A program made the translations under genes and the position numbers. This document shows, one piece after another, positions 8,884 to 53,354 of a stretch of 64,000 nt of DNA. Under the pieces are notes generated by a model. That model ran no database searches. It was not told the origin of the DNA and worked only from the letters and a program-made list of their open reading frames with translations. The stretch is from the NCBI GenBank assembly GCA_946965045.2, contig OX337236.1, positions 2,046,001 through 2,110,000 on the forward strand, written 5' to 3'. The stretch comes from Epithemia pelagica (Eukaryota; Protista; Bacillariophyta). Position 1 is the stretch's first letter; each line of letters opens with the position of its first letter.

Positions 8884-8925
8884 CTGCGGTATTGAGAGGA
8901 AGTAAACGAAGTGAACTACAGGAAT

Positions 8926-27779: not shown

Positions 27780-29741
27780 TTATCGAGACGCCTGTTCTGG
27801 GTTTGGTCGACGACGCATGTTTTGCCACCACGGCTTGTTATTATTTTTGCTCTCATTGGCTTCCATCAAGAGGTTTGGGCCATGCATTGTGGCAATGTGT
27901 GGCAAGGCTGCTTCCAGGAAATGTCGCAAGACGGCAGTGCGATGATATTGTGCCTCCCCTACCACATTGTACCGTAAAAAGGTAGCTCGAGTCGCGGCAT
28001 CCACCACGTTCGTGCCCCATACACTCCAGGAAGAAGTGGCGTCATCGTCGACGGCTTGGACCGTCTCGTCCAAGACTCCACCCCCAGGACTGGTCCAACT
28101 GCTCGGACTGGTACGGTCCAATACAAAGGTTCCCACAAGAGCGGCCAATACCAAGGACCAAACAAGACCTCGTTGCAGGTTGGTGGTCCCTTGGGTTTGA
28201 TACAAGGCGGGTAGATTCAAAATCAAAAGTCCTATCCAAAACAAGCATTCCCCCAATGTCATCAAGGAACTATCATCGAGTCCAAGCTCGTCATGAATTG
28301 AGGCCAATTTCGAGAGCAACGAGGAAATCGAGGCCGTCGTGCTGTCGGTTGTCAACCACAAGGGCATCAAAACAAGGCCTTGCAAACAAAAACCAGCCAA
28401 ACAAACCAAAAGTCCCAGTAATTCGGCTCCACCCTGCTGTTCTTCATCGTCGTCATCTTTGCTGTCTCTTTTGTTGTTGGTGCTACCCTCCTTGTTCTGG
28501 ACTTGGGTTTCTTTGGTCCTGCTGCGTTGTTGGGTATGGGTAACGAGCGTCGCCCAATGTGGCGCGGTCCACACCAACATCCACAGGGTACTGGCCATCT
28601 CATAAACTACCAAGGTTTCAATGGGAACGGCATGGCCGTGAAAGGGATGACGTCGACGATGATGCAGGGACCATGCCACGGAATGATGGGAGGAAGAATC
28701 AGTCCCCCACAAGGATTCGAATCTGGATACTACCAACTCTTGAAAGAGTGCGGGGTATTCCAAGCCGCATTGGACTCCCAAGGTCTTGATACCGTAGAGG
28801 AATAAACACAAACTGCTGTACCAAGTGCAGGGTGGCAACGACGACTGGTCTCCTAGAACAAGGGGTGGGAGTGCTACCAAAACCAGTGTGAGTCCACCAC
28901 CCATAACTTCCAGGGGGAACAAGGATTGATCGTATAGGGCCCAGATCAAGCCAAAGAGCGTCACACATCCCCATACGGCAAGACTGGTCGAAAGAAAGGC
29001 CGAGGACGGGTCCAACGTGTTTGGATTGTCTCTGCGATTGGCCGTCCGTCGAGCCCGAGAATCGTCCTCGAGAATAACATCCAGGGACCGATCCTTTGTT
29101 TCGTCAGACATAATTCCGGAAGCAAATGGAGTTGTCGTCGCAACTGGTTTCTTGGTTTGGAATGATTCTCCTCTTGTCCCATTGGTTGCCTCTGTGTTTG
29201 ATTTGATGACCTGTTCCGTTGGAGTCATCGTCTTGATGCTCGGTTGGTGAATGTCGTCATCGTTGTTGTCTGGACTGTTGTTTGGTTGCTCATTCACGTT
29301 TGAGTGGTCGTTGTTGCGGTTGACGCTTCCGTGTTGCTCCGTCGTCGTCTGTGGTCTCAAGAGGGGTAGTAACCGGGGAGCAGCCTTGACAAGAGATTTC
29401 ATGAGGAGTCGATCTTCCAAGGGCACCACCGGTTCCACGACGGTCGATGAATGTGTTTCCTGTGCGACCGAATGAATGGTAGAAATGGTGATGAGTGAAA
29501 TATTGTCATCCTCGTCGTCGTCGTCATCATCATCGAAACTTTGATCTAACGAATGATTGAGATGATTATCCTCATCGTCGTCACTGTGGCCGCCGCCGCC
29601 TTGTTTCTTGACATCTTCTCCCAATAAGGCAAATTTGCCATTTTGGTAATGATGTTCGTGATGATACCCTGGACGTTGTTCGGCCGCGTCCGAAGCAATC
29701 GTCAAGTGCAAATTGGTTCCTCTCGATATATTCAACGACAT
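27780..29741 (-). CDS. Multi-pass membrane protein, possibly DUF1295/steroid 5-alpha-reductase-like
   Basis: Acidic low-complexity N-terminus and several TM segments. LGECLFWIG resembles the GE..FW.G motif of DUF1295. Confidence 0.45.
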   Translation of the reverse strand: MSLNISRGTNLHLTIASDAAEQRPGYHHEHHYQNGKFALLGEDVKKQGGGGHSDDDEDNHLNHSLDQSFDDDDDDDEDDNISLITISTIHSVAQETHSSTVVEPVVPLEDRLLMKSLVKAAPRLLPLLRPQTTTEQHGSVNRNNDHSNVNEQPNNSPDNNDDDIHQPSIKTMTPTEQVIKSNTEATNGTRGESFQTKKPVATTTPFASGIMSDETKDRSLDVILEDDSRARRTANRRDNPNTLDPSSAFLSTSLAVWGCVTLFGLIWALYDQSLFPLEVMGGGLTLVLVALPPLVLGDQSSLPPCTWYSSLCLFLYGIKTLGVQCGLEYPALFQELVVSRFESLWGTDSSSHHSVAWSLHHRRRHPFHGHAVPIETLVVYEMASTLWMLVWTAPHWATLVTHTQQRSRTKETQVQNKEGSTNNKRDSKDDDDEEQQGGAELLGLLVCLAGFCLQGLVLMPLWLTTDSTTASISSLLSKLASIHDELGLDDSSLMTLGECLFWIGLLILNLPALYQTQGTTNLQRGLVWSLVLAALVGTFVLDRTSPSSWTSPGGGVLDETVQAVDDDATSSWSVWGTNVVDAATRATFLRYNVVGEAQYHRTAVLRHFLEAALPHIATMHGPNLLMEANESKNNNKPWWQNMRRRPNPEQASR

Positions 29742-30523
29742 GGTCGGCGATGATGATGCGAATACCCCACAACAAATAATACCGGAGGACCCGACAATGT
29801 CTCGGACCAAACAAGGAGGAGTTCTTTTGGAACCAGAACAGCAGAGGGGTTGCAGTTCTTATTCACTAGTCCCCTGTTTCAGTACTCTTGGTCTTTGAGT
29901 TGCTTTAGTTCTTTTTCTTCTCCAGCTTGATGATAGAGATGAATGAGGGACAATGAGCGAAACCGAGAAAAGGTATTGTATTGTACAGAGTGTGATGGTG
30001 ATGACTCAATGTACACCCAAGTTAAGATGGGACCAAGGAACATGGTCAGGCCACGTCATGAAGTCTGAGCATTGGCGTTGGAGTGCAAGTCGGGCGGTCC
30101 ACCCAAAAGAAGAGCCGGCCTCGCTGTCACACAAAGAATGAGGCAGAACGGGCGTGCAACTCGGAAGAGGAAGTTCCAAAAAGAACATGTGCATCCCATC
30201 TACTGCGACAAAGCCTCTTCCATTCCATATCTCAAAGTGGACTGCCTCCAAATAGAGGATCGTCCGATTCAAGAGGCATGGGCACTCTTGAATCAAACAA
30301 CAATGCGCCAACAATGGATCCCTAATGGAGCGCGACATGCGATCCATGACAAACAAGCAAAGACGCAGCAAACAAAACAAGAGGGACACGGAGAGCTCAC
30401 TCTTTGGGTTTTCTACGGTTCGTCGGCGAAGGTCTGATCCCCTTTGGCGCCGTTCTTGATTTCTAAAGAGTTGAAACTCCAACTTTCTCTGCTCACTTCG
30501 CTCTCTTACTTACTCCTTCTACC

Positions 30524-32979
30524 ATGTCGGTTCCTCCTCCTCCTCCTCCTGCACAGGATGCTGATACGCTCCTCTCTGCGCTCGTCGCTTCGGCCTCCGT
30601 GGCTAACACCCCTGCGGCTGGGGCCGCCCGTCCTTCTACGGCGGCTCTGGGGGGGGATCGCGGTCAAATCTCCTTTGCTGCTGACCCTCCCACGGATGAG
30701 ATGATGGTTCAAGGCACGGAAACCGCATTGTTTCCTGAGAGCACCATGGACCCTACTGTCCTTGGACGCTCTACCGGTGGTAGTAAGTTTGGTGTCGTGG
30801 CACTTCGCGCAAGCGAATGTGCAGACAAGTTGTTGTGTTTGGGTCTCAAGCGCGGCGGAGCAACCTTTTGCATCGACCCCAAGTGCGCTAAAGCCGGGGA
30901 CCATGGAACTGGTCTAGCTCCCGTCGACTTGGGACCCTCAGGAGGATTGTTCATTACCAAGAACCCTGCCTCTGCCTTTTGCACTCCGGTTATCTCGTTG
31001 AGTGAGATCTCTCAGGAGACACTGGACCAAGTCCAGCATGAAAAACACACTATGGAAGAATGGACGAAGAAATTCGTTGCTATGAAACGTCTTAATCAAG
31101 TTAAGAAAGAAGGTCACCTGGATGCCAGTCTGAAGGAAACAGAGCATAAAATCTCCAAGGCTGACTCCCTCCGTACCCCGTTTACACTCAAGAAAGCTAC
31201 CTCTACCTCCACCTCCTTTGTCGTCGAGAATTTCTCTCCTCACCACAAGATTTTGGACGGGGATCTGCAGGATGTGATTCGGAAGATTACTGTTGACTCC
31301 TCCTTGGTTCCGATAACTCTTCGCGAAATCGAAGACTCGGTGATGGAAGCAGGAGAAGTGATCCAGACTTTGTCCTTGGAACAACAAGCCATTTCGCGTC
31401 AAAACAGCACAGCCGTTGAAGCTCTAGGAATCAAATTTGATAAACTGTCCATGGAAATTGGACCTCGAGAGGACTTGCCGGACGAGTACCAAGCCCCGAC
31501 CCTCTGGGGAATCATCTCTTCGATGATTCGTTCCATTCAAGAATCCTCTCCCTCGACGACTGAATCTCACCAACGTGCTGTGGATAGTCGCCTTGCCGCG
31601 GTTGAGTCCTCTATTGCTACTTTCTTCTCAACCATCCAAGGCCAAGTCTCTTCGAAGTTGTCCTCGACCCAAGTTGAGACTCGTAACTCGGTAGACAAGC
31701 TTCGAAACCAATTCGTGCAAGGCTTCAAAGGAATCCTCGATCGCTTGTCGGCCCTTGAATCCAACACGACGCTCACCAACCGTATCTTGACCATTGAAAA
31801 CAAGATGTCGTCCCATGAAATTTTACTTAGCCAACTGGGAACCTCCCCGCAGATGTTCGGTGCAACACAGACGACATCCAACACAGGAGCACCAGCCCTT
31901 CAAAACAAAGTCACTGCTCTTGAAGGGGAAATCGCGAATTGAGGACCCTCTTGGGAGATGCCAATTTGGAAATGCAACGTCTCAAGGGCAAGGTCGACAC
32001 TTCCACCATCAAGTTCGGAAATCTTGGCGTAGCAACGGTTGATGACTGCAAAGCCTGGGTGGCCCTCAAGTTCGGGTCAAGAGCGTACGGTCTTTTGTTT
32101 GATCTCAACTTGGTGCTTGAATGGTGTGCCCCGCAGGAGAATGGGGATGTTTTATCCATGCTGACTACCATGGAAAAACGACACAAGATGCAGATCGCGA
32201 CAACAAATGAAGCTCGAGCGATTTATGCGATGAAGAATGAATTTCCCCAGCTCTTGTACAAAGATTTCCCTGGCACCGGGCGGGACCCTTCGTTTCTCAC
32301 TGCGATGAAAGAGTACTCGGATTGGGAGTCGCCCGAGCCGGGAGTTCGTGACCGAATCCTGAATGGTCTAGGCAACATGAATTCTATGTTTGGAGAACAA
32401 ATTGCCACAACGATGGCCAATGAACCTGAAGCCCGTTCCTTAGCCTTATCTATGCTATCTGTTTCGGTGGGTTGTTGCCGTGAATTGGTAACCTATTTTG
32501 ATGAAACCATGAATGAACTCACTATCAAGTCGAAGTTTACTACCCGCAAGGCCTTCAGTTTGGTTACCCAAGTGGTCAGGCGCTTCTTCATGGACTTATA
32601 CAAGGTTAGGGCTCAAGTCTACTTGTCTCTTTCGACCACTGATAGTGCTGGCCAGTGCGCATGGATACTTTACGGCGTTCTTCGTACCCACGATGTTATG
32701 AGCGATTACGTCAAAGCTCGTTTCAAGAACCATCCGTCCGTTTCAAGCGAATACATTCGCTTCCTTTCCACCAACTCGGGCTTCGAGTCCCTCAAGACGC
32801 TAGAAGATCAAGTGGAATCCTTGAAGCGTACCTCTGCTCAGTTGGTCAAAGATGTTACCTCGGCCAAGAAAGCTTCCGACACGGCCAGCAGCACTGTGGA
32901 CAGTGTCAAAAAGGATGTGACCGAATTGAAGAAACAAGCCCAGCGTCGTGGAGGATCTACCAACGGTGACAAGAAGTGA
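30524..32979 (+). pseudogene. Gag-like ORF1 of the YR retrotransposon, split by a 1-nt frameshift at ~31939-31942
   Basis: Cys/His cluster CADKLLC...FCIDPKC..AGDH and coiled-coil regions. ORFs 30524..31942 and 31939..32979 abut (EIAN*/LRTLLG). Confidence 0.65.
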
Positions 32980-34377
32980 CGGTGTGCCGCGCCTAAACTA
33001 GATGAAAACGTTTCGTATGTTGACTCTGGTTTAGACGCTGGTAGTATTGCATCATCTTTAAGCAGTCTGGGACCTGGCTCTCCTGGTGGTGTTGGTGCCA
33101 AACGTCCAGCCTCACCACCGCCTAGCATTGTCGTTTCGGTCAAACGCTCCAGGCATCGTCCTACTGATCGCGGATCACGGATCTTCCGAAGTGATTTGTC
33201 GTGTCTTATCCTTGGTCAAACATCCCTTTCGTGGGGACTTGGTCTCAGTCTCGGGGACTGGCACGGCATTTACATGTTGGCTGCTGAGTATGAAGCACGA
33301 CGAGAGAACCCCTTTTGGCGTGCCGTTTTGCTTCATTTTGGGGATAAGCTCCACTTAGTCCCAAGCATCGATGTTGTTCTGGGACGAGGGATCATTTCGG
33401 TTGTACTGTTGGAAGGCGATCCTGATTACCTCGCGTCTTCCTTGCTTTTCGTCCCTCCGAGTTGGCCTGTTTTATTGTTGCTTCCTTCGGGATGGAGTCG
33501 CCCCACCCTTCCTCAAGTCCAATGGTTGTCGGTCACCCATCGTCAATGTGGTGGTGTCACGACCGCACGTGTCCACGTTGGGCGTCGTGGTATACCTCCG
33601 TTGTTTTTCCATGTCACCACGCGGCGCACGCTGGGTTCGATCATCTCGCATTCAATCCGTCCTTCCCCGTGTGGGGCGCCCACTCTACCTGATTCTTATT
33701 ACTCCTGTGACGATCAGTTGCACACCCGTGCTCTTTTCAAGTCTATTCGGTTGTCCACACACTTTTCAAAGACGGGTTGGGGTTGTCGTCCGCTTACTGA
33801 TGAAGAAATTGGAACGGCGTTCGATTTGCCGCTTTGGGTCATCGATGATACGATTGCTTTTCGTTGGTGGTGCTCCCACATGATTCATCCGCGAGTTACT
33901 CCCATCAAGATCCCAGCTTTAGTGTTGAATTCCGCTTTACCACACTTGGACCCTGTTCTGATTCACCACACTAGTACCGCCGGCAACAAACATGGTGGAC
34001 CCTCATCCCCGTTTCGTCCCTGCAAACGCGGCCGTTGGTTGACCCCTCTTTCGGAAACTGTCCAAGATGGCGTCCTGGGTACCACCTTTTCCTTCTTGCC
34101 CGCCTTTCTCCCTCATGACGCGTGGCTCGACGATTCCAAGATTGCGGATATTGCGGTTAAGGCAGACGACGCCCTGGCCCCTTTTTGGATTTGGGATGGG
34201 CGGATTCGGGGCATCTACCCTTGGATCACAGATTCGGCGCTTTCAGGCTTCCGCTTGTTGGCTTTGCTTTGGTGGCGTCGCTCCTTGGTGCGGAGTTTCT
34301 TGGCTTATTTACGCTTGCGGTTTGGTGCGAATTGGCCAGCCTTAGTGGCCTCTTCACCACTCCAGGGGGGGGGGGGG
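32980..34377 (+). CDS. Degenerate C5-cytosine DNA methyltransferase-like domain, in frame with gag behind TGA
   Basis: The frame is open from 32980. Segments resembling DNMT motifs occur in canonical order: SWGLGLSLG (after I), LAAEYE (II), VVLLEGDPD (IV, no Cys), THRQCGGVTTARVHVGRR (VIII), RTLGSII, RPLTDEEIGTAFDLP (IX). Confidence 0.5.
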
Positions 34378-36911
34378 AGGAGTCTTTCAATTTCGATTCG
34401 TTTCCCGTACTGCTATCCGCCGGCCGCTGTGTCTTGTCCCAACTTCTTCGTTCCACCTGGTGGGACTGGGATGCGGGTTCTTCGTTGATTTTTTGGCGCT
34501 GGAACGGCCTCTCCCAACAAGCAGATGCCTGGTTTGGCACTCCCATCCATGTCACCGATGCTCTTCCTTCTTATCATCGGCGTCAGCGTGCTCCTCCTGC
34601 GGAAATACTCCCTCAAGTTTCCAAGAAATTATCGACCGTGCTCGAGCGTGGTTATTTGGACGGTGTCTCTCCTCCCTCCAGCATGACCGACTATTTCGCT
34701 GTTCCAAAAGGCGACAATGACATTCGGATGGTCTATAATGGCACAAGCTGCGGGTTGAATAAGTCTCTGTGGGCACCAAATTTTTGGTTACCAACGTCTG
34801 AGTCGGCTCTACGACTATTGACCACCGATTCCTACTGTGGGGACATGGATTTGGGGGAAATGTTTTTGAATTTCCCCATGGACGTACACCTTCGACCCTA
34901 TGCTGGTGTAGACATGAATCCTGTCCAGTCACACCTCACCCCAGAAGCTACAGCCCTCTCTCCTGAATCTGGTAGGGTGCGGTGGAATCGTTTATTTATG
35001 GGTATGCTTCCGAGTCCGTTCCACGCCGCCCGCCAATACTACCTGGCTGAGGAAATAGCAAAAGGAGCACCACAGGATCCAACCAATCCGTGTGGTTTTG
35101 ATTCAATTCGCTTCAACATCCCTGGCTCCGCCGATTACACCCCAACTTTGCCTTGGGTCATGAAGTGGAGCTCTAGACTCGACAACATTACGGGAGATGT
35201 AGTTACCTACATGGACGACTTGCGAACGGTCGGTTCCTCAGCCGAACATGCATGGCAGGTGGCACGCCAACTGGGGGCTAGATTGCAATATCTAGGAATT
35301 CAAGACGCACCTCGAAAGCGGAGACCACCTTCCAAAACTCCCGGCGCATGGGCTGGCAGTGTACACCATATCTCAGCCACGACCATATCAAAAACCCTCA
35401 CCCAAAAGAAATGGGACAAGGGCAAGAAACTCCTGGAAAAATACGTGGATGCATATACCAAGAGTGACTCTCCCACGTTCGATCACAAGCAAATGCAACG
35501 AGACGTGGGCTTCTTCGTTCATCAAGCGCTGACCTACAATTCGCTAATGCCCTTCTTAAAGGGATTCTATTTGACTATGAATGTTTGGAGACCCGGGCGC
35601 AATGGCGAGGGATGGAAGCTGTCAACAAGGGAGTGGCTTTCACAGTTACAAGAAAAGTTTGGGGACGAAGAAATCAACACCATTTGTGGTTTCTTAGACA
35701 CAGATGAAGATGAAGACTCGCATGCAGAACCAACCAACAAAGAAAAGGACATTCCACCAGCACGGGTCAAGGCAGTTCCGAGGCTGCGAACCGATGTACG
35801 AGCCATTGCGGTCATGCTAGGTTCAGAGGATCCTCCCAAAGTCCAAGTCAGGTCGGACACCATCTTTGTTGCATTATTCGGATGTGGCGATGCTTCGGGA
35901 TGTGGATTCGGGGCAGCCTTCCAAGTCCCTTAAAAGAAACTGTCGTATAGAGTGGGAGCATGGAGAAAGGACATCGTGGTAGGTGAATCTTCCAACTGGA
36001 AGGAGTTTACCAACTGTGTAGAGTCGCTGGAGGAAGAAGCGTCCTTGGGCCATTTGGACAACACAGAAGTCTTCTTCTTCACAGACAACTCAACCGTCGA
36101 ACGTTGTTTCTACAAGGGCTCATCATCAAGTCCAAAACTGCTAGAACTAGTGATCCGTCTACGACGACTAGAGATGCGCCATGCAATACGGCTGCATATC
36201 TCCCACGTATCAGGAAAGAGGATGATCGCTGTGGGAGTGGATGGCATTTCTAGAGGGCAATTGAACGAGGGAGTCATGGCTGGGACTCCCATGTTATCCT
36301 ATATTCCTCTTCACAAGACCCCATTCCAGATGTCCGAGAATCTGTTCGAATGGGTTCGTTCTTGGTTGGGACCCAAAGCAGAAGCACTAACCCCCATGGA
36401 CTGGTTCACAACAGGCCACGACATCCGGGGATGGTCCCTCCCAACAGAACATAACAAACTGTCCCTGCCTATCCTTCGGCCAGGACATTTTGTGTGGGCT
36501 TCGCCTCCAGGAGCAGCTGATGTGGCTCTCGAGGAATTGAGAAAAGCACGTCACAAAAGACAATCTTCCATGCATGTTTTTCTTTGTCAACGCCTGCTTA
36601 CTCCGAAATGGTATAAGCAGTTACACAAGGCATGCGATTTGGTTATGGAGATCCCTGCTGGAACTTCTTTTTGGCCTGAAGGAAATTATGAACCTCTCAT
36701 CGTTGGTCTTGTTTTTCCTTTTATTAGGGCACAGCCGTGGCAATTGCGGGGCACCCCAAAAATGTTCTCAATGGACCGCCAATTGCGCAAATTGTGGAAA
36801 GAAGATCCAGTGGGTGGAAGGGATCTTCTGCGGAAATTTTGCGTTCAGTGTTGGAAAATGCAGTCCATGTCGAAACGCATGGTGCGCAAGTTGTTATTCT
36901 TCGAACGATGA
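34365..36911 (+). pseudogene. DIRS-type reverse transcriptase plus RNase H, one in-frame TAA
   Basis: WDWDAGSSLIFWRW, FAVPKG..DIRMVYN, DMDLGEMFLNF, MGMLPSP, YMDD; RNase H GDASGCGFG*..SSNWKEF..FTDNS..GVDGISRG. ORFs 34185..35933 and 35952..36911 share a frame. Confidence 0.88.
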
Positions 36912-38298
36912 GGGTCGGTTCTTTGTGGCTTCCAGGAACTTGATGGTGGAAGAGTCGGACGCGGACCGGATCGTAGCAGCCACTTGGAGAGCGCGCACAA
37001 AGGACCGACGAGAAGATTATAGTCATGCACGAGCGGGAGATCACTTGATGACTCCTTTCGAGTGTGATTGGTGCATCTTTCGAAAGTTGAGAGGTGAGGA
37101 ACCGGACCCGTAAAGCGTGCAAGACAAGTACTTGATGGTGTGTGTGAGACGCATGAATCTCGATGCATTTTGGAGTCGGGCAACAAGCACGGTTGCGCAA
37201 AACACTAGAAATGCCAAAAAGATGATTGAGAAGTCAATGAAAGTGGGAATCCCTTATGGACCGTTCATGAGCCATGGCCCGTTCCCGAGTTACGATCATT
37301 GTGGGTACCAAGTGGCATATTTGATGTTGGACAGTTCGTTGGACGAGGGAAAGTATCATACGGATAGAAAGCAATTTGACACCATCCGGAAATTTCGATC
37401 GGTGTACTCCAATCACGTGAGAGCAACACCGGCCACTTTGGTTGATAATCGACCCCTGGTTTTGACGGACAACAATGGGAAAGCCTTCTCTCGGTTGGGC
37501 CAAGACGAGAGCGGATCATTATGGTTTTCAAGATTTGTTGAAGGTTGTCGCCGACGGATGGGCCAAGACTGGCGCCCGGACCAAGCAATATCTAGCGAGT
37601 TGGTTGTTGCGTTGCTGGGTTCCTTGGAAGAAGAATTGAGGCGCGCAAACAATGTGACGGACCCGTTTGTGACGGTTATGGCGGGAACCTTTTATGCTGT
37701 GTCTTTCGCTTTGTCCTTGAGAGGGCCGGAAGGGCTGCTCCTTGATTTAGGAGCCATGACTCGATATGCAGATCTTTACAAGGACCGGGATTGCGTGGTG
37801 GTTTGTCTTTGGGGCCAATTCAAAGGCGAGCATTCTGAACGGGCTCATCTCCTCCCCTGCTGCAATGTAACAGGGAGTGGAATCAAAGTTCGCCAATGGT
37901 TGAACAGAGCAATGGTCTTGTCTCGGGACATTGGACGAACGACCGGGCCGTTGATGATGGATCGAAAGGGTGTACCCATCGCGCCACGAATGCTGGATGA
38001 CATCCTGCATCGACATTTGTGCAAACTTTTCGACAACGATAAAAACCTTTTTCCTCTGACTGCCATCAAAGGGGAAGAGGACATTGTCACAAAATACTTT
38101 GTGTTCCGATCTTTCAGACGGGGTTCGAATACAAGAGCAAAAGAGGTGGGCGTCGAGCAGCCAGACCTTGAAACTGTCAACCGATGGAGAATAAAGGAGA
38201 GAGCAGGAGCCAATAAACCAGGCGGGGCCATTGACCACATGTATGCAGACCTGTCGATGCTTGTGGGACCGTTTCTCCGGTACAGTTCTGCAATGTGA
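36574..38298 (+). pseudogene. Tyrosine recombinase overlapping the RNase H in another frame, one in-frame TAA
   Basis: Cys-rich N-terminus (CSPC..WCASC, FECDWC), RRMNLDAFWSR, SLRGPEG (R), FKGE (K), RSFRRG, NRW and MYADL (Y). The two ORFs share a frame across DP*SV. Confidence 0.88.
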
Positions 38299-38753
38299 CG
38301 ACCAAACCAAGATTCTCGGTGGAGGGGGTTTCTGGAACTGGCAAGTTGCGTTGAGGCTGACATGGCAAGGCCTCTTCGCTTCTTGTCCATTAGAGAGAGA
38401 GTTTGAGCCGATTGCGTCCCCTGTCCGTTTCCGCCTTTGCGATTGCATGGTGCAACCTGATCGCGTTGGTGGGCCACAAGCGGATCCAACAGGAGTCTTG
38501 ATTTGGGTCTTTCTTTTTGTTCTTTTGGGCCGGTTCCCCTGTCTGAGCATTATGCCAGATCGGACCCTGAGTGGTGAAGGATTACCCTTCCCCCCACAAC
38601 ACAACCTAAACTAGTGTTTACGGTTGCGAGAATCTAATGAGATAAGTTTATGATTTGATTCTACTGTTTGTCTTTGTGTTTGCGCGAGAGAAAGGGATCC
38701 TGAGGTTGGATGGCGACATGGTGGGTGCTGAGCAGGGTTTGCGAGTGCCCTGA

Positions 38754-38788
38754 CAACACACAACACACAACACACAACACACCACACA
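38754..38788 (+). repeat. (CAACACA)5 heptamer tandem repeat
   Basis: Four perfect units plus CCACACA. Confidence 0.85.
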
Positions 38789-39510
38789 ACATGAAACATG
38801 ACACGGTCGACGGAAGAAAGATCACTGCAACTTCCGGCGCCCTCCTCGACCATTGCCCTCCTCGTAATTCTACCCTCCGCGCCGCGCGGTCCCTCCTTGA
38901 AAGGACTCGACACCGGGAAGTATTAATACTACTCGTACAGGAAGGGTAATCGCATACGTGAGAGGTTTCATGTTTCATCGGTACGAGGTAACCTTACGAG
39001 AAAATCAACCGTGGATGAGGGGCAATTCATTTTACTCTTGGAAAATGTATGGTATAGTGAATCTCGTTGGGCGGAAGTCTCATCAGTTGGTGAAGCACGG
39101 GCTACTGCGCGAAGAAGTTTCGTGCGGTGGAGCTCGTATAGAAATCATTATTTCAGTTAGAACATACTGAGACTCTCATTTCTTCGATGAGTGAAATGAA
39201 ACAATTAGGTAACCGGACGAAGCTGTCTTATTTTCTTCAGTGAGAGGAAACCTTGGACAATAATCAAAACTCCATTCAACAGAGTCTTGCTCTGAAAGAG
39301 AACGACAGTGATTCTTTCGGCTTTTCCCGCTTGGCTGGAGAAATCTCTCACCACTTACGACTTTGGGAGGCCATGGAGCATGATTCATGAACACCACCTC
39401 TATCAGATCTACGTAGCATCATGAGGTGATGTGCGAATGCAGGGGAGTCGTCCTGTCACCGGTTTCAATTTCCAACATGTTTGTGGTGGTGATGTTTGTT
39501 GTTCCTTGTG

Positions 39511-40302
39511 CTATCGAAAGCATGTCTGGAACAATGTGATGGAAGTTTGTTTTGTTGATTCTCTTTGTGTCGGCCGTCTTGTCGTCCACCAATTCATCCA
39601 ACCTTTCAGATCTACTGGAAGATTTGCCACTACAACGTCTCCCCCCAATAAACTGGAATCATCCTCATACAAGGAAGTGTGGTTCTGTTGGATGTTTTCT
39701 TCAAACTGAGTCGTATTCTCCATGTTTTTGTTGTTCTCGTTCACGAGAGACAGGCTTTGATTGAGGTTGATTTGGCTGTTGTTGTTCGTAGCAGAAGTAG
39801 TAACAGTTTCATCGTCTACAACCACGTTGCTGCTCAACAAAACCACCTTGTTTTGGCTGGTGCTGCATTGGGGAGGAAGATTTCGCAAAAAGCTCAGGAC
39901 GGATCGATCGTCAATATCCTCCACCTCACACACTTGAACACTATCTTGGTCATCATAATACTCATCATCCTCTTCTTCCTCGTCGTCTACCAAATTATTG
40001 AGTGCTGCATTGTTTTGGTCCAAAAAGTCCTTGAGACTCATCAACTTTTTCTTCTTCTTGCCTGTTTTCATGCCCATAGAGTTGTTACTGGAACACACAC
40101 TTGCTGAATACGATGGACAAGATAAAAGGGAAACCTCGTCACAAAGGGAGGAATCATCATTGTCTCGTCCTCCATACAGGTACAATCCTGGTGAAACACT
40201 GTTCTTTGTCGTTGTGGACGCCGGTGTGACCTGTGGCATCTGTCCGTACAAGAGCAACGGTGACAGGTAGTTTTGATTCATACGAAGCGTATTCAAAGAC
40301 AT
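39511..40302 (-). CDS. Hypothetical low-complexity protein
   Basis: ORF with S/N/D/K-rich composition typical of diatom hypothetical proteins. No family recognised. Confidence 0.4.
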   Translation of the reverse strand: MSLNTLRMNQNYLSPLLLYGQMPQVTPASTTTKNSVSPGLYLYGGRDNDDSSLCDEVSLLSCPSYSASVCSSNNSMGMKTGKKKKKLMSLKDFLDQNNAALNNLVDDEEEEDDEYYDDQDSVQVCEVEDIDDRSVLSFLRNLPPQCSTSQNKVVLLSSNVVVDDETVTTSATNNNSQINLNQSLSLVNENNKNMENTTQFEENIQQNHTSLYEDDSSLLGGDVVVANLPVDLKGWMNWWTTRRPTQRESTKQTSITLFQTCFR

Positions 40303-40943
40303 GACGATGGTCCTAGAGTGTCTTTGTTTGGTGGTATTCTTGTGTTTGAGAGACCGTTGCTGCAATGCCAAAGGCGCCAAGTCGACGACGGGTGATGACG
40401 AAAGACAAACACAACAGCGCCATGCAGCACAAACAAAACACTATGATACCTATGTATTCTTGTGCGTTGCGCATGGTGGCGAGACGAAATCGGAACCCAA
40501 AAATTTCGTTTTACGTCCTAACGTGACGGACATTTCATGATTCAGAATAAGTTTTGATTACGTCGTCTGTCAAGTCCAGTCTCGAAATATTTCCCGCTCG
40601 GGATACCTTGGGTCGCATAAAACCCCGCCACATGTGTCATGTCCGTTGTCCGTGTTTTGTACATTACATAAGAGGAATGTCCATTGTTTCTGTCATGATA
40701 AGACACAGGAAACAGGACACGGACGAAGGACGAATGACTTCGTCCAAACACCTCAGCGGTAGTTTTCCCGTAAAGCTTAATTCGCAAATGACGATTTGAA
40801 ACTATTCCCGATAGAAAGTTGAATGGTCGACGTGGGGGGGCGTGACACGGGATGGACAAACATCTTGTTGTTAGTGTCTCCTCTCTGTCGTAAGAGTGTG
40901 TCGCAGTCGCTGGTCACTGGTCACCACGCAATTATTTTTCAGT

Positions 40944-43547: not shown

Positions 43548-46500
43548 CTAAACTAGAAGTTGGGTGGGGTGATCGTGCGTGGAGTAGGCGGTGTGTGGGT
43601 TGAAAGGGTGGGGGAAGTAGCGGGTAGCGGGACAGACGGTGAAAACAGAAGATTTTTTGATTCTGCAAAGTTGACGTTGGTTGGAGAGGTGCAAGTCGGT
43701 GGTGACTAAAGCGTCGAGAACATGTTGTGCTAGTGCGGTGGTGATGGCATGTCCGAGAGTGAGCGTGGCGTGGCGTTGGAGTGACATTTGGAAAGGTTGG
43801 GGTTGTGGGTGGGTGCGCAGTTGGGCGGTATGGATGAGGTTTGAAGGTGCGAACTCCGTGAGGTTGTTGAAAGCCAAAAAACCATCGGGGTGGGCGAGGC
43901 AGCGGTCAGATTGGCCGAGTTGTGGTGTAGTCCAAGGCGGAGGGTTTGAGGGGGAGAGGGAATACCAGGGAGGAGGACCGAAGAAGAAAGTGTGGGCAAA
44001 ATGACCGAGGCCACCTAAGTGGTCGATGGAAAAAGGCAGGAGAAGGAAATTGTTGCTGTTGATAAGAGCGGTGGTGGTTATGTCATGAGTGAATTTGTGG
44101 CGCGCTGCCGCGTGGTGAATCGAGGATGCGTCGTTGGCAATGTTGTCGAACGATTGACCGGTGCGGCTATTGGCTTCGGAGTGAGGTGTTGGAGGCAAAT
44201 GAGGGTGGGCGGGGGGAATTGTGATGTCGATGGCAACATAGTGGAAGCAGTCGTTGGGGAGTGGTGGATGGAGGGCAAGGCCAATGTCGGCCGGGCGGAT
44301 ATTTCTGGGGTGGTGTGGTAGTAAGTTCGTTGGTTCAAGGTGGATGTCGTACTGGGTGCGGGTCCATTCGGCCCGAGGGGCAAGCTCTTGCGTGAGGAAG
44401 AACACGGCATCTCGTAGTTTGTTGGAAAGTTTGGTTTTATGGTGTTTTGAGCATGAAAAGAAGTGATCGCCGTACGGGTCAAGTTGTGGGTGATTGGAAC
44501 AAAAACAAGAAAGAGGAAAATGCGCGGGAAGGAAGGGAAGACGGATTTTTGTGAGATGGCAATTTGAAATAAAGCATTGGGGATGCGGAAGTGATGAAGA
44601 GAACGAGGTTGATGTAGCGTACAAGAGGTCAGCCGTGACAAAGCAGATGGGAGGGAGCGTTGAAGTCTGGGCGGGGTGGAAGCAACAATCAACGGGAGCA
44701 GATGAGACTCCTGATTGTAGATTGTGAGCTGTCGTTGGGCATCGGGTGGGTAGGCAGCGGGGTTGGTGACATCGAAAAGTAGTTCGGAGGTGAACAACGA
44801 TCCGAAATGGTGGTGGATTTCGGCGAAGGAACGGGGTGTGGGGAGGAGTGTTGGGTGGTGAGTGGTGGGAGGAGAAAAAACATGGGTGTGAGCCTGTGGG
44901 TACTCTGGAGAGTTTGCGAGACGGAGGGATCGGCTGATGGAGTTTAAGAGGGAGGGAACTGCAGTGGTACGGTGGCATGGATATCCAAGTCCGCCGAGGG
45001 CTGTTGTGAGGTGAGCAAGATAGAGGGAGTGTATTGGGACGGTGGTAGTGTGGGTCAGGTGTTTGAGAAAGGTCGTGACGATGGTATCAAGACGTGGGGA
45101 GAGAAAGTTCGTCCAGAGTGTTGTGTCTGGGAGTGGATTCGAACGGTGTCGGAGGCGTAGGAGAATGTCCGCGGAGAGGAGGTGGGTGATTTTGGGGAGG
45201 ATGCTGGATCGGAAGAGAATGGATTTGGTTTGGGAGTTGGGTAGGGATTGGACGGCTGTCGCGGAGAATTCGATGGTGTCAAGTTTTTGGGTAAGAAATT
45301 GTTGAATGAATGTATCGCTTCCGATTGGGTGGCCTAAGAAACGTGTTCCTGTGGTAATTTCAGCTTCTGAGGGGTTGGACGGGTTGAGAAATGAGAGTGC
45401 CTGTTGAAGGTGTTGGCGGTTTGATGGGGTAAGGGCGGGTAAGGGGCTGTGGCCGTTGGTGGAAGATAAGATTTTGGTTTTTGCCTTGTTGAGATGTATG
45501 CCAAACTTTTGTCCCAGTTGTTCGAAGTTTTGAAGAAAGGGAAGGAGATCTTGGTGGAGTAGACAGACGGATGTGTCGTCCATGACACTTGCGGTGTGGC
45601 TGGTGCCACCCATGTTGTCGTCGTAGAGGAGGTGTTGTTTGATTCGTTCTAGGGCACGGGTGGAAAGGTTTTTGTTGATGGTGGCGGTGAGCGTGGCGAG
45701 TACGAGACAAGCGAACAGTGGACTGAGGGGGCAGCCTTGGCTGAACCCTTCCGGTTGGTTGAGGGTTTGATTTTTCCCATGCTGGTCTTGGTACCAGTTT
45801 GTTGTGTCATTGGAGTACAGTAGGTCAAAGAGTGATACAAGTGGCTTGGTGGCTGGGTGGGATTGAAGTATTTCGCGGCAACGGGTGCGAGAGCATGCGT
45901 TGAACATGTTCGTCAAGTCAAGAAGGATGAGGGCTCTGGTGGGTGGGGTGGTATGGGTGGCGTCAGTGGTGACGTATCGGTCGATCTGTTGTTGGGTGAG
46001 ATGGGCGGTGAAATCTACGCCGCCGCTGGTGTTGATTCCATATTGTCCTTGGGTTGTGAGGATGGGTTCGATGTCGTCAGCTGTGATGGTTAGAGCAATT
46101 GTGGCTGCCGCGCGGCGAAGAGCTGTCCCGATGCCGATCGGGCGTAATTTATCAAGGTTGGAGATATCTTTGTGAAGAGCGAAGAAATGGATGGACGAGA
46201 AATACGGGCGAATTGGAGATGGGAGTTGGTTGTTTAGGATTTGAGCAAAGAGGTGTTTCAGGTTGTGGAAGTACGGCCAATCGGCGGAGGGATGGGTGGT
46301 GGACCTGTGGAGTCCAAGTGCCCGGATTGTGTCGATGGATGCAGAGAATGGGCCAGGGGCGGTTCCTTGGCTAAGTCGGTGGAGTGCCTTTTCAAAGGTG
46401 TTGTCGGTGATGGTGTTGTTGTGGGTGGGGGTATATTGCTGGTTTCGGAGGTGGTGTGGGGGATCTAGGCGGGGCGGGTACAGGGATGTTTCAACAATTT

Positions 46501-47403
46501 CGATCCTATCGGGAGTAAGGGTGGCGATGGGCATGGTTGCTGTGAGTCTGTTGTGGGCGGCCCGAATGTTTCCGAGGTCGGCGGCTTGTTGGGCGAATGT
46601 GGCCATTGATTGTGGGGTTGGTTTTGGGGGTTGGTGGTTTTGTTTGTGTTTGTTGGTGCGGTTGCGTCTGTGTGGCGGGGTTGTTGTTTTGTCTGGATGC
46701 CAAATTGAGTCAAAGAGATGGATGAGATCCCCTTGTATGAGTTGGGCGACTCTATGTTTTAAGGCGTTGTGGTGTGTACGGTGTTGGGTTTGTTGGATGG
46801 GGGCGAGGAGGAGGGCTTCGATGATGAATAATAATTTCCAGAAAGGGGTGCTGTCTGTGTTGTGTTTGGGTTGCGACGTTGGTGATTCTGTCGTGGCGAA
46901 GGGAAGGGAGGCTTGGTTGGTCCATTGTATGACCATGTTGAAGGTTTGAAGAAAGAGGCGTTTGGCTTGGGGTTTGAGTTTGGTGAATGACTACCGGCGG
47001 AAGGGTGGAGGAGTGAGGGGGAGATTGTGGAGGAAGGCTAGTTGGTCTAGCCATTGTTGTGATTGTGTTGGTGAGAGGTGTCGGAGGTTGGATCGGATGA
47101 TGTCGAGGTTTGTGGCTTGGCGGCAGTGGCTTTTGTTGGTGTGCGTTTGAAGGTGTCTTGGGGTGAGGAAGATTGCGGTTGGTTCGTTGCATAGACGGCA
47201 GGGGTGGAGGTTGTGGTGGTGACAAAAGCGGTCGGTAAGGTGTGTGGTTGGCTCGTCGAGGTGGGCTTGTTGGAGGTGGAGGCGAATTTGATCGGTGGTT
47301 TGTCGTTGGGTGGAGGCGGGGTGGAATGCCAAGAGCAATTGGGGTAGGGGCAAGTGGTTTGGGAGGGTGGTGTCGTGGGTTTGGAGTGTTTTGGGCTACT
47401 CAT
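43548..47403 (-). pseudogene. ORF2: two C2H2 zinc fingers, RT, then CCHC/RLE; disrupted
   Basis: CPYPNC..H...H and CRLC..H...H; RT LRPIGIG, QYGINTSGG, DLTNMFN, QGCPLSP, VMDD, FLGHPIG, GGLG; RLE CFC..D.YGDHFFSC, RPADI, IDIT, PFSIDHLGGLG. Frameshift near 47335, TAG at 46991-46993, frameshift near 44560. Confidence 0.85.
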
Positions 47404-50400
47404 TGTTTGTTTGTCCCCCCGTGGGGTCGGTGGAGTTTGTGGGGTTTTCGTCGATTTCCATGTCGGTTGTGGGGTTGTTGTTGGGGTTATTGTGGGGTTC
47501 TGGTTGGAAGATGGTGTTGGGGTCTTGGATTAGGTTGTGGGCGAATTGCCAGATTGTTTTGGCATCGGTGTCGTTGAAGGAGGCGAGTTTGTCGACGAGT
47601 TGGTCTGTGAAAGTGGTCAGCAGGGAGGGGTCGTTGCTCCTGAGGTAGTCGTCGAGCAATTCTAGCTCATGAGTGGTGTCCTGGGAAAAATGGTTCGACG
47701 GGATGCGGTAGAGTAGGTGGTCTGGGGGTCGTTGGTTGTCGTCGTGTTCGTCTTCCTGAGAGGAGAAGAGATTAGAGTCGGGTGGTGGTGTGGTTGGTGT
47801 GGTGGTAGGTTCCTTGGTTGGTGTTGCGGTGGGGTTATTCGTTGGGTTGGGTTCCTCGTCGTCGGAATCGTCGGCAAGTGCACTGTAGGGGTTGTTGGAG
47901 GTGTTGTGATTGGTGGTGGTGGCTGTGGCCGGTGTGATTGTGATGGGGCCGTTGTGATTTGTTGGTGTTTTGGTATTGTCGTCCGGAGAGGCGGGGCGTT
48001 TTCGCGTGGGAGTTTCGGTGATTGGGGTGGTATTGGGGTTGGATGATTGGAGGTGGTTCGCAGGTTGGTTAAACCGGCTGGCAAGGGCGGCCAGACGTTT
48101 GGTGCGATTGGCAGAGGAGGGGCGGTGATTGGGGGTGGATGGTGGGATTTTGGCCGTGACAGCTGCCATGGTTTGGTGGAGCAGGTGAGAGGGGAATCCG
48201 GCGAGTTTCTCTCGGATGTTTGTGGGGTTGATGTGCATTGTTCCTATGTTACAATGTAAATGGAGGTTGTAACTCTCTGGGGATGGGTTGTGGGCGGAAA
48301 ATTGTGGGAACAGTCCCCGATAGTCGGTGAGGTGGAAGAGTGCGTCCCAGTCGTCGGGAGATGCTGCTGGGTTGATGTTGTGGAGGCGGACGACGTGACA
48401 TTCCGCAAAATTTGTGTCTATGGTGCGCAGTGAGTCGATGTAATCTGATCTTTCAGATGGATTTTCGGGGAAGGGGAGAAGGTGAAAAGGGACCTTGTGG
48501 TATGTGAGGTCGTGTTGATTTGCTTGGGTGAACGCTTCTGCGGCGTCTAAGAGAAGTTCAAATTTCTCCAGGGAGGAGGAAGAGATGATGACGGTGGGGA
48601 GGGTGAGGGAAGGACCCTTGTTGGGTGGGTGTCCGGTGATGGTCCCGTCCCGGAGACCATAGTGCGTTGAAAAATCTGCCATGGAGTGTAGGTCGGGTGG
48701 GAGGTGGGGGAACAGTTGGTCTCTGATGGCTGTGAGCACGTGGAGGAGGGCTCGTTTGTGGAAGATTGTTTTGGGTGATAGGCCCGCGAGGAGGCCATAG
48801 CCGCGGCAATCTGGGTGGTTGCAGGCTGGTGCATACAGTTTGAGTTGGGGAGCGCGTTCGCTGGTGGTGGGGTTGGAATCCGGGGTGGCTGGTTGCAGGA
48901 TGTCTTGGAGGCCTGTGGTGGGGTCGTGGGTAAAGTCTTGGTGGTGGTGGTGGTTCCAACGTTGTAAGATGAATTTGAGCGCTTGCTCATGGTAGAGTTC
49001 TGAGTCGAATTGGTCTTGGGTGGTGGCGGGTTTCAGTACGACCTGGAAGGTAGAAACGTGTCCTCGTGGGGTGGTGTTGGGGCGGCGGGAGGGGGTCGGG
49101 ATCTTGGTGGTGAGGTAGTTGATTTCGTGGATGGCCAGAAGGATGGGTTGCTCACGTGTACGGTGGTGGTCGAGAGTTCCTTGAATTATATTTTTGATGG
49201 TGGTACCGGAGAGCGGTGGAAGGCGTTGTTCCCGGGTGGGGTCGGGCTCATGGTGCACGTAGGCATTCCAATAGATGTAGTTTGTGGTTATGGAGTCTTC
49301 GCTGTCGTCGTCGTTGTGGTAGGAGTAGGGACTGGGTGGCGTGGTGGGAGGGGTCGTGGGGTTGGGTTCCGAGTGTTTCTGGGTTTTGTAGGGATTCTTG
49401 GTGGGGTTGGTCTTGGGGTTGGGTTCCGAGTGTTTCTGGGTTTTGTAGGGATTCTTGGTGGGGTTGGTGCTGGGTGGGGGCTTGGAGGTGGGGACGCTGG
49501 GTGGGGACTTGGGTGGGGATGGAGGCTTGGTGGTAGTGGTACTGGGTGGGGTCGTGGTTGGAGTGGGGTTGGGGGAGGGGGGTGTGGTAGGGACGGAGCG
49601 GTGGATGCGGGGTGGGGTAGCTGGGGACGTCTTGGAGATCGCGAGGAAGGTTGGGTGGAGGGTAGGGACGGGAAGGGGCTTTTCAAGGATGGTTTTGGTG
49701 GTGGCCGAGTTCTTGTTTTTCTGTTTTTTTTTGGTTTTCTGCTTGTTAGGGAGTGGAGTGAGGGTGGAGAGTGGGACGTGGTTGGTGGAGTTGGTGAGGC
49801 AGTTCTGACGGGCAAGGGGAGGCGCCATGGTTGGAGGGAGGGAGCGTTGTGTTGCGAGCGAGATGAGGACTACGATGGGAAGGGGACAAAATGAATTTTG
49901 TGAGCAAGGATAGGCGGGGGAGATGGGTGGTGGTTGGGGGATGATGTGGATCTTGTTGGGTGTCAGAATTGTTGGTGAGTGTGGCTGGGAGTGTACTGAG
50001 CAAGGATAGGCGGGGGAGATGGGTGGTGGTTGGGGGATGATGTGGATCTTGTTGGGTGTCAGAATTGTTGCTGAGTGTGGCTGGGAGTGTACTGAGCAAG
50101 GATAGGCGGGGGAGATGGGTGGTGGTTGGGGGATGATGTGGATCTTGTTGGGTGTCAGAATTGTTGGTGAGTGTGGCTGGGAGTGTACTGGTGGTGGGAT
50201 GGTGTCGGTTTGCAGCTGGTGGGGGACGACGTGGAGTTTGGGAAGGTGTTCTTTGGTGTCACTGGATATGTTTCGGCAGTTGGTTGGGGGTCGGGGGCAT
50301 CTGGTTGGGGTCAGGGTGCTATGAGGTGGCGGAGTGGTGGTGTCGGTTGGGGGGAAAAGGCATCTGGTTGGGGTTCCTCGGCATCTGGTTTGGGTCGGGG

Positions 50401-50851: not shown

Positions 50852-51659
50852 GGTGGCGACCAGGGACTCCGACAGTACCGGTATGGTATGGAAGTAGGTC
50901 TCGGTTCTATTACAATGCTGGATCTCCAAGTCTCTCAATTCGGTTTCCGCTGTTCCGAGTTTTTTTTTTCTCTCTCGATGAGAAATTAATGTTGTGTTGG
51001 CGGTTGGCGTTTGCTGTGGGTGTGGGGTCCTCGCGTGGTTCTGTGTGGGGAGTTGGGAGGCTGCAACGGTATGTTTTCCCAGCGCTTGGCATCTTTTCAA
51101 AAAGCTTGAATCTCTTTACAAAACCGTCCGAACAACGAGGGATAGTGACCGTCTGTACTTTGTCAAAGCAAGATATTCTGACGTCAGCAAATTCAAATTT
51201 CAAAATTATCTCTTAAAAATTAAATTTGAGCTTCGAATATTGGGGATGTCAAAATCCTCCGCTCTCGATAAAAGACCCACGACCTCCTCCAAATTCTACT
51301 CCTATTAGCGTTCGCAGCTCTCTCAAGACTCAAGACGGGTTTTGGGTAGCTCGACGCCCAAACGTTCTTCGTCACAGAAGTGCGCATTGTTGATTGATGA
51401 TTGGGCATTGGGTACCGACGAAAATGCATATGGCCATTGGCGATAGGTATTTGCATGCTTTTGACGTTATCTATTAGGAATATCAACTTATTTTATGTAC
51501 TTCTCAGCGCTGTTTCAACTATCAGTCCTTCGGACGAGCCCCATCTATTCGCTCCCACTGGAATTCGCAGCTATCCGTTCTTTGCTTTTCAGAAAGGGGT
51601 CCCTCATTCCGAACTGTCGACAATCGTCACTGCGAACGGAGATTAGACGCACAGTGAGT

Positions 51660-53130: not shown

Positions 53131-53354
53131 TCAGGGTTGGTCTTAACAAGCGTGAAATTTCACATGTTTCACACTAAAACACCTTCGGTTTGTCACAGTT
53201 TTTAGACGTGAAATCCTAGGGTCTAAACGATGTGAAATGTTTTCACACCCTCCCACGACTTCCCCCACACCATCATCCATCTGATCCGCACGTACGACAA
53301 CAAAAACCAATAACCACACTTTGATTGTTGTGCACATATTGATTGTTGTGCACG

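Follow-up and report, generated by a model that had tools for sequence, protein, structure and literature searches.

How should one read a retrotransposon protein that appears to hold, ahead of its reverse transcriptase (RT), the fold of a cytosine-C5 DNA methyltransferase with the catalytic parts cut away? The question is raised by a stretch of 64,000 nucleotides from the diatom Epithemia pelagica (contig OX337236.1, positions 2,046,001 to 2,110,000), here called the window, whose own positions serve as coordinates throughout. It contains a copy of a tyrosine-recombinase retrotransposon, all features of which lie on the plus strand, and in which an original prediction made from the letters had seen a captured C5-methyltransferase-like region of about 460 codons (32980-34377) between gag and RT. 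The frame is indeed open from the stop of the gag-like open reading frame (ORF) to the RT frame, but the methyltransferase fold is limited to 268 amino acids (aa) at 33166-33969, and the rest consists of a 62-aa leader, a linker of ~40 aa and a separate conserved pre-RT module of ~90 aa. Structural modelling makes it almost certain that this domain has the C5 methyltransferase fold and has lost the catalytic motifs. As to its use, we favour, with a probability of roughly 0.55, a pseudo-enzyme that would serve as a nucleic-acid-binding module on the element's own RNA or cDNA.

Nine close homologues of the domain are 53-98% identical to it, and a profile built from the window domain and seven sisters, searched against 1.84 billion cluster representatives, defines a family of 339 representatives at E<=1e-3. 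The family counts given below rest on the best 150 of these 339 matches, from which 146 new ones were analysed. The alignment used for fold prediction (A3) holds 107 sequences, namely 102 of the 146 (coverage at least 55%, length at most 520 aa), four others and the window domain, to which identity ranges from 19 to 59%. Given the family alignment and no templates, AlphaFold2 returned a model with a mean predicted local distance difference test score (pLDDT) of 95.2 and a predicted template-modelling score (pTM) of 0.91, the five models lying between 93.6 and 95.2; predicted from the single sequence without an alignment, the fold was uncertain. The first 27 matches listed by Foldseek against the PDB were all cytosine-C5 methyltransferases (best E 1.4e-6). 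A second structure search, independent of Foldseek and covering 48,161 PDB representative chains, gave 19 chains with Z>=8, all 19 of them C5 methyltransferases, the best unrelated chain reaching Z 7.4. M.HhaI was the best match (Z 14.6, root-mean-square deviation 3.8, 235 residues aligned, 8% identity), followed by M.MpeI (14.0), DNMT3A (13.9) and DNMT3B (13.8); on repeating the structural comparison Z rose to as much as 15.3 for M.HhaI, with M.MpeI and DNMT3A/B at 13-14.6, and a search of a viral structure library agreed with the C5 methyltransferase fold. The matching enzymes align with 225-253 of the 268 residues, from residue 3 to residue 263, and both lobes and the closing helix are therefore present in the model. 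The predicted fold is that of a cytosine-C5 methyltransferase, with a Rossmann-like large lobe, a small lobe between motifs VIII and IX, and a motif X helix. The structure prediction that had been proposed as a check thus speaks with high confidence for the fold, and conservation among related elements, the lack of which had been set beforehand as grounds for abandoning the idea, is seen in 339 relatives with near-invariant columns. Scores for M.HhaI, M.MpeI and DNMT3A/B lie within ~1.5 Z of one another, such that bacterial enzymes and DNMT3 tie as the class of donor.

Motifs were placed by strand order in the predicted model, and their spacings were compared with those of 12 real C5 enzymes (E. 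coli dcm and phage records; at 12 of 16 loci there was a complete ORF containing motifs I, IV and VI). The names and consensus patterns of motifs I, IV, VI, VIII, IX and X follow common usage and were checked against the same 12 enzymes. In place of the FxGxGG of motif I, the family has F/G-E-x-x-P-x-W after strand 1 (F 39/74, E 48/74, P 54/75, W 73/75), which in the window reads GQTSLSW. At motif IV, Pro-Cys lies within six residues of the strand-4 Gly in 0/112 members and a Cys in any setting in 11/112, at scattered places; in the model a helix starts directly after G146. From the strand-4 Gly to the end of strand 5 there is a median of 23 residues (n=109, range 20-38), compared with 41-50 in the 12 enzymes, and from the same Gly to the motif VIII position there are 49 (n=109), compared with 82-100; the catalytic loop is ~18 residues shorter than the shortest of the 12. 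These shortened spacings imply two deletions, one of the catalytic loop and one of the helix that joins strand 5 to strand 6. GDPD had been noted in place of the catalytic Pro-Cys, together with the lack of ENV, and both observations stand, but GDPD is peculiar to this subfamily, the family consensus being S-G-S (S 82/111, G 104/112, S 68/111). Glu-Asn is found at the end of strand 5, the place of motif VI, in 0/115; the Q-x-R-x-R of motif VIII gives way to GG-x-T-x-x-R, with R in 55/136; and the Gly-Asn of motif X is replaced by an invariant Pro (95/95). Just behind strand 2 an acidic residue persists in part of the family (D or E in 55/77), and the R-x-L-T-x-x-E of motif IX is kept (R 126/133, L 126/133, E 126/132) and falls in register in hhalign. 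Because Pro-Cys, ENV and the glycines of the S-adenosylmethionine (SAM) loop are gone, and both the catalytic loop and this strand 5-6 helix deleted, methyl transfer is very unlikely. The loss appears to be family-wide, with Pro-Cys in none of the 112 homologues compared among the best 150 matches and the FxGxG loop replaced in the family pattern. The description as catalytically dead holds more strongly than first proposed, since the catalytic loop has been deleted and not point-mutated.

At the level of sequence, the relationship is far less visible. The stretches resembling motifs IV, VIII (HRQCGGVTTAR, 33538-33570), IX (RPLTDEE..AFDLP, 33787-33831) and X (from 33901) do follow in the order that the original prediction described, but their likeness by sequence only does not rise above chance. 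Pfam recognised no family for the domain in the window protein or in 8/8 aligned members; PF00145 in particular was unmatched in the window protein, the 8 aligned members and 78 family proteins scanned, and PHROGs and NCBIfam gave nothing for the domain. Searches of the PDB with phmmer and with hmmsearch (two profiles) had best E values of 0.33-1.1, to unrelated proteins only, among which the beta-gamma-crystallin matches of the profile search (E 0.33) were dismissed as chance. In hhalign, the deep family alignment matched the 12 C5 enzymes with a probability of 4-10%, only motifs IX-X being in register, with no alignable signal for a tree; cross-tests of hidden Markov models against the same 12 were not significant.

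Among the 146 representatives, the motif VIII hairpin keeps H187 in 126/133, G191 in 131/136, G192 in 132/136 and T194 in 119/136, and the TGWG/motif IX region keeps G266 (121/134), W267 (105/134), G268 (116/133) and P284 (119/129). Also conserved, like the columns just named, across representatives below 50% identity are W85 (73/75), R216 (130/141), H220 (111/141), L247 (131/140), R227-P228, R270, L272 and E276; C231 (81/139) and H240 (80/140) are partly conserved. The domain is 268 aa long in 5/5 sisters with a complete N-terminal end, the leader before it being variable in 47 relatives with a full N-terminal end, and contigs of public runs carry 11 variant places in 32980-34364. An origin of the conservation in an overlapping frame was dismissed because it is seen at the protein level among relatives of <50% identity. 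The fold is apparently kept under selection across the family. The residues H187, T194, R216, H220, C231 and H240 match none of the consensus residues of the 12 enzymes, and this could mean that the scaffold has gained another active site, for instance that of a nuclease or processing enzyme. An invariant acidic residue or Cys nucleophile is lacking besides the structural Glu of motif IX, H220 and H240 are absent from the window's own intact subfamily and C231 is 58% conserved, which together make new chemistry improbable. Many of the conserved columns are Gly, Pro, Leu and Trp, explicable by folding alone, and the domain evolves faster than RT and holds a constant place between Gag and RT, the same pre-RT module behind it; these features would be accounted for by a role as a spacer or in protein interaction, for Gag-Pol assembly, dimerisation or RT positioning, with no contact to nucleic acid. 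Such a role is nevertheless rather improbable, given the polar residues H187, T194, R216, H220 and R227, conserved at 76-95% and so beyond the needs of a spacer, and the flexible linkers on both sides of the domain.

The copy in the window is itself damaged, with four lesions: a frameshift near 31938, the G13 run at 34365-34377 and stops at 35931 and 37111. Together with the degenerate DNMT domains of varying conservation that are mentioned for Symbiodinium DIRS in a figure legend of PMC5890265, this could be taken to mean that the domain is a functionless, decaying relic of a captured methyltransferase. None of the four lesions falls within the domain, though, and its open frame, constant motif spacing, near-invariant columns across representatives of <50% identity and confident fold from the family alignment alone make decay a very remote prospect. 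Sister proteins of 98% identity (1210-1289 aa) are on record as intact, and the majority contigs of public sequencing runs are open at all four lesion sites. Over the element body, contig depth is ~600-660 compared with ~122 in both flanks (run X1), about five times the flank depth, indicating about five near-identical copies; the depth data come from three runs of one study with at most two samples, and as such are not independent of the window. The high-depth contig begins at 30005 and single-copy contigs return at 39087-39100, which sets the approximate edges of the element, and no terminal, inverted or split direct repeats were found within 28500-40500, although the ends of this copy may be incomplete. 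The features of the element are collected in Table 1.

Table 1. Features of the retrotransposon copy in the window (positions in the 64,000-nucleotide window)
Feature	Position	Strand	Remark
Whole tyrosine-recombinase retrotransposon copy	30005..39100	+	~9.1 kb, ends approximate
Gag-like ORF1	30524..32979	+	TGA stop 32977-32979; one-base frameshift near 31938 splits this copy
Candidate stop-codon readthrough signal	32977..33056	+	UGA-CGG with a long stem-loop behind it; gag and pol share a frame
Low-complexity Pol leader, 62 aa	32980..33165	+	18-43% identity to relatives
Predicted dead cytosine-C5 methyltransferase-fold domain, 268 aa	33166..33969	+	spans both lobes, from the strand of motif I to the helix of motif X
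EGDPD	33412..33426	+	end of strand 4, place of motif IV; catalytic loop apparently deleted there
H-x-x-x-G-G-x-T hairpin	33538..33561	+	motif VIII position; best-conserved family signature
TGWG hairpin and motif IX-like R-x-L-x-x-x-E-x-x-x-x-F-x-L-P	33772..33831	+	
Pre-RT helical module, ~90 aa, AVKADDA..WD.RI	34093..34364	+	follows the domain
G13 run in glycine-rich hinge	34365..34377	+	shifts frame in this copy
RT (YMDD), RNase H, C-terminal adenine-methyltransferase-like domain	34378..36911	+	premature stop 35931-35933 in this copy
Tyrosine-recombinase-like ORF	36541..38298	+	overlaps end of pol; Cys-rich N-terminal part; premature stop 37111-37113 in this copy

The domain was described at the outset as fused to RT, and this holds for intact sisters (P0006, P0012) and for distant relatives, but not for the copy in the window, which is split by the G13 run. 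The pre-RT module follows the domain in 58/61 representatives with at least 100 aa behind it, and RT is in the same protein in 18 of those 58; the full order of domain, RT, RNase H and C-terminal domain is seen in P0050, P0056 and P0182, the last, with the same layout, being from Cylindrotheca fusiformis. A deep-profile search of long proteins added one more full-length Pol, annotated as RVT_1 only. In the contigs of all four runs a shorter G run keeps Pol in frame, and P0006 and P0012 are continuous there, while the G run also shifts the frame of five other proteins (P0002, P0004, P0005, P0016 and P0039). The hinge GG is found in 15/18 in-frame relatives and in 20/28 of those whose ORF ends after the pre-RT module; the poly-G hinge is possibly a hot spot of mutation or assembly error, or a site of programmed slippage. 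We note that the ORFs of many relatives end just past it. RVT_1 is weak in the window (E 0.008) and stronger in the relative P0198 (E 1e-5); this part of Pol is 94% identical to the intact P0012, and the YMDD and RNase H-like motifs are conserved in alignment A1. The C-terminal domain was modelled with a pLDDT of 83 from 19 sequences, its best matches being weak (Z 6.5 to PCIF1, 6.0 to E. coli Dam), and its pocket is W-(A/S/T/N)-P-P-P. It fits the usual Dam-like domain of DIRS elements, with a match below the clear level. As a second C5 fold it was rejected, there being no clear match and the best entries being adenine and RNA methyltransferases at Z<=6.5.

The gag-like ORF1 is broken in this copy into ORFs at 30467-31942 and 31924-32979, and contigs of runs X1-X3 keep a single frame there; Pfam gives weak coiled-coil matches only, and the label 'gag-like' rests on position. 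The recombinase-like ORF had no Pfam, PDB, PHROG or relevant NCBIfam match, and its LRGPE (37717), SFRRG (38110), NRW (38179) and HMYA (38236) are presumably the R...x-x-x-R...W...Y residues of the recombinases. Its N-terminal part (36541-37113) overlaps pol by ~370 bases and has several CxxC pairs, and its only in-frame ATG near the start is codon 12. Contigs at about five times the flank depth join window position 30487, at the 5' end of the element, straight to 38327, at its 3' end, which is likely to represent a non-autonomous form that has lost its interior and is roughly as numerous as the full element. In the non-coding 3' end (38540-39100), where a short array of ACAACAC lies at 38753-38791, depth exceeds that of the flanks 10- to 100-fold; many more loci share this end than share the coding body, and nothing corresponds to it at the 5' end.

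How Pol would be made bears on where the domain would act. Pol continues in the frame of the gag stop codon, which the majority contig also has (it differs at three places, all of them elsewhere). No ATG occurs in this frame before 33274, inside strand 2 of the predicted fold, and translation begun there would therefore truncate the fold. The stop context is UGA CGG UGU, of which UGACGG belongs to readthrough type II; all nine bases recur in a coltivirus according to the text of PMC13517186. The stem-loop has a z of -3.9 with 0/200 shuffles as stable, for a stretch chosen after looking, and 24 of 770 windows of the element are as stable; in a sister contig that has diverged, the 11 bases of the 5' arm of the stem are unchanged although the loop differs. 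Taken together, a Gag-Pol fusion through UGA-CGG readthrough is likely, with CTG at 33067 as a candidate alternative start of Pol.

Our preferred explanation, that of a pseudo-enzyme binding nucleic acid, brings these observations together as follows. An active methyltransferase may have been captured by an ancestral element and its domain kept after catalysis was lost, with Pro-Cys, ENV and the SAM-loop glycines gone and, by residue counts on the predicted fold, the catalytic loop and strand 5-6 helix deleted. In intact sisters the domain, the pre-RT module, RT, RNase H and the adenine-methyltransferase-like domain are in one frame, and Gag-Pol made by readthrough would place the domain inside the particle beside RT. 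There the cleft between the lobes, which would be lined by the newly conserved His, Thr, Arg and Trp, could hold the template or cDNA and either hand this intermediate to RT or the recombinase or shield it. In active C5 enzymes, the motif VIII hairpin and small lobe face the DNA. Binding of nucleic acid is favoured because both lobes are kept, conservation is highest at the motif VIII hairpin and small lobe, the charge is positive (net positive in 54/66 near-complete domains, median +4, with a basic pair after strand 5 in 58/115) and the domain is linked to RT. DIRS-1 is described in the text of PMC7192593 as passing through single-stranded cDNA.

Several points weigh against this explanation. 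At the level of sequence, homology to C5 enzymes falls short of significance; the counts cover the best 150 of 339 matches, and ranks 151-339 may hold a catalytically intact member. The catalytic loop, deleted here, is a DNA-contacting element in C5 enzymes, and the conserved residues are assigned to the cleft from strand order and from the known structures of such enzymes. Change has been quicker in the domain than in RT: among sisters their identities are 57-68% and 66-79% respectively, and among distant relatives 20-37% and 38-53%, conservation of the domain in the latter falling short of that of RT, RNase H and the C-terminal domain and exceeding that of the linkers. At two columns conserved in the family, the subfamily of the window has lost the usual residue, with S in place of H at 220 and of P at 255; the median charge of +4 is modest with 12/66 domains not positive, and the readthrough signal is read from the DNA of this element and its close contigs only. 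Scans of metagenomes for related DNA yielded 0/123 usable stretches; one locus, L056, lacked the domain as an ORF. In L056 (1045-4565 of a metagenome contig) a bacterial-looking isocitrate dehydrogenase ORF runs into an RT fragment of a related retrotransposon, which is probably a chimeric assembly.

The same retained lobe could instead serve against silencing. Diatom transposons are CG-methylated and repressed via DNMT5, according to the text of PMC9998398, and the domain might bind CpG, hemimethylated CpG or the host methyltransferase, thereby blocking maintenance methylation of the element. Consistent with such a reader or decoy, the small DNA-recognising lobe is retained in the model, and KR-rich stretches resembling nuclear signals lie in or beside the hinge of many relatives. 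Observed/expected CpG is 1.03 in the domain and 0.76-0.96 in the element, not clearly below the flanks (0.85-0.94), but these figures do not separate protection from weak methylation by the host. Furthermore, covalent fusion to RT in a product of low-level readthrough would be a poor design for a genome-wide decoy, and the helix after strand 5, which in DNMT3A-DNMT3L forms part of the contact surface, is deleted. The decoy against host methylation in the original prediction is without direct support here, and we regard it as unlikely. A wider form of the idea is similarly doubtful, in which a widespread diatom retrotransposon clade would have turned a captured methyltransferase into a CpG- or methyl-CpG-binding shield of cDNA and insertions against DNMT5, paired with a degenerate adenine methyltransferase domain at the opposite end of Pol; if true, the fold that the host uses for silencing would here have become a pseudo-enzyme by which a transposon counters methylation.

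Three other mobile elements are found in the window. A Copia-type element (8896-14997, plus strand; RVT_2 E 1e-18) has two ORFs that share one frame and are separated by a single TGA with C after it (10840-10843). A non-LTR-like (long terminal repeat) retroelement on the minus strand (43548-51115; RVT_1 E 1e-9) has a long Pro/Thr/His-rich first ORF and causes a GC skew of 0.5-0.64; the dead methyltransferase domain is not in it. A Harbinger-type DDE transposase (53343-54692, plus strand; DDE_Tnp_4 E 1.5e-19) faces a 463-aa ORF on the other strand.

Among known systems, the general layout is that of Ngaro, PAT-like and DIRS-like elements, with a gag-like ORF, an RT/RNase H ORF and an overlapping recombinase ORF (PMC6681497, PMC8547959). 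The text of these sources mentions no N-terminal C5 fold, the word 'methyltransferase' being absent from that of PMC8547959, and in contrast to these elements the copy in the window showed neither inverted terminal nor split direct repeats. SymbioDIRS-Dnmt3 of Symbiodinium (de Mendoza et al. 2018, PMC5890265) comes nearer, in that a C5-methyltransferase domain likewise lies in the RT ORF of a tyrosine-recombinase retrotransposon, and its RT also fits Pfam poorly. According to that text, however, SymbioDIRS-Dnmt3 keeps the key residues, matches PF00145, groups with Dnmt3, methylates CG in yeast and has split direct repeats; compared by description, the element studied here has no Pfam match for the domain, a deleted catalytic loop and no repeats found, and carries an adenine-methyltransferase-like domain too. 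The LINE (long interspersed nuclear element), DIRS and Gypsy elements that bear DNMTs in the same text also keep the key residues, and diatoms are not mentioned in it. DAM-DIRS have a Dam-like domain after RNase H, as here, and EpiLTRs combine adenine and cytosine methyltransferase domains in one element, again as here, although these belong to the LTR elements, come from Cymbomonas and Euglena, and carry a chromodomain as well as a DNMT that can be recognised (bioRxiv 10.64898/2026.05.21.726589, the main text of which makes no mention of diatoms). Against both, the element in the window differs in that its C5 fold is N-terminal and dead, and its W-(A/S/T/N)-P-P-P is not the usual Asn-Pro-Pro. 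A survey of diatom DNMTs by PF00145 has no mention of DIRS in its text (PMC9998398), and surveys with this profile will undercount such captures, because it recognised 0/78 family proteins. We found no report of retrotransposons with a dead C5 fold, nor of methyltransferases in diatom DIRS, in a literature search outside which subscription journals, figures and supplements lay.

Compared with the C5 enzymes themselves, the domain has a predicted two-lobed likeness to M.HhaI, M.MpeI, M.HaeIII, DNMT3A/B and DNMT2 (10mh, 8c56, 3ubt, 4u7t, 6u8p, 4h0n) over 225-253 residues with Z 13-15, and keeps their strand order and motif IX pattern. It departs from them in having 8-12% identity, in lacking FxGxGG, PC, ENV, QxRxR and GN, and in being ~35-40 residues shorter between motifs IV and VIII. 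In being a dead derivative of a C5 methyltransferase kept by selection, it resembles DNMT3L and DNMT3B3, which are accessory subunits. These match far less of the model (2pv0, Z 6.5, 148 residues; 9e00_V, Z 7.1, 166 residues), and unlike them the domain still has its small lobe and motifs IX-X, and its gene is part of a mobile element. Retrotransposon-borne DNMTs have so far been read as working enzymes, while here the fold has been kept after the catalytic machinery was cut out. The family thus suggests that methyltransferase domains can have uses in retrotransposition other than as enzymes, and is relevant to the role of such domains in DIRS elements; the domain, small at 268 aa and predicted to fold well, lends itself to direct testing. 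By the defining features of the active C5 methyltransferases and of SymbioDIRS-Dnmt3 it lies outside both groups, yet it is built on that fold.

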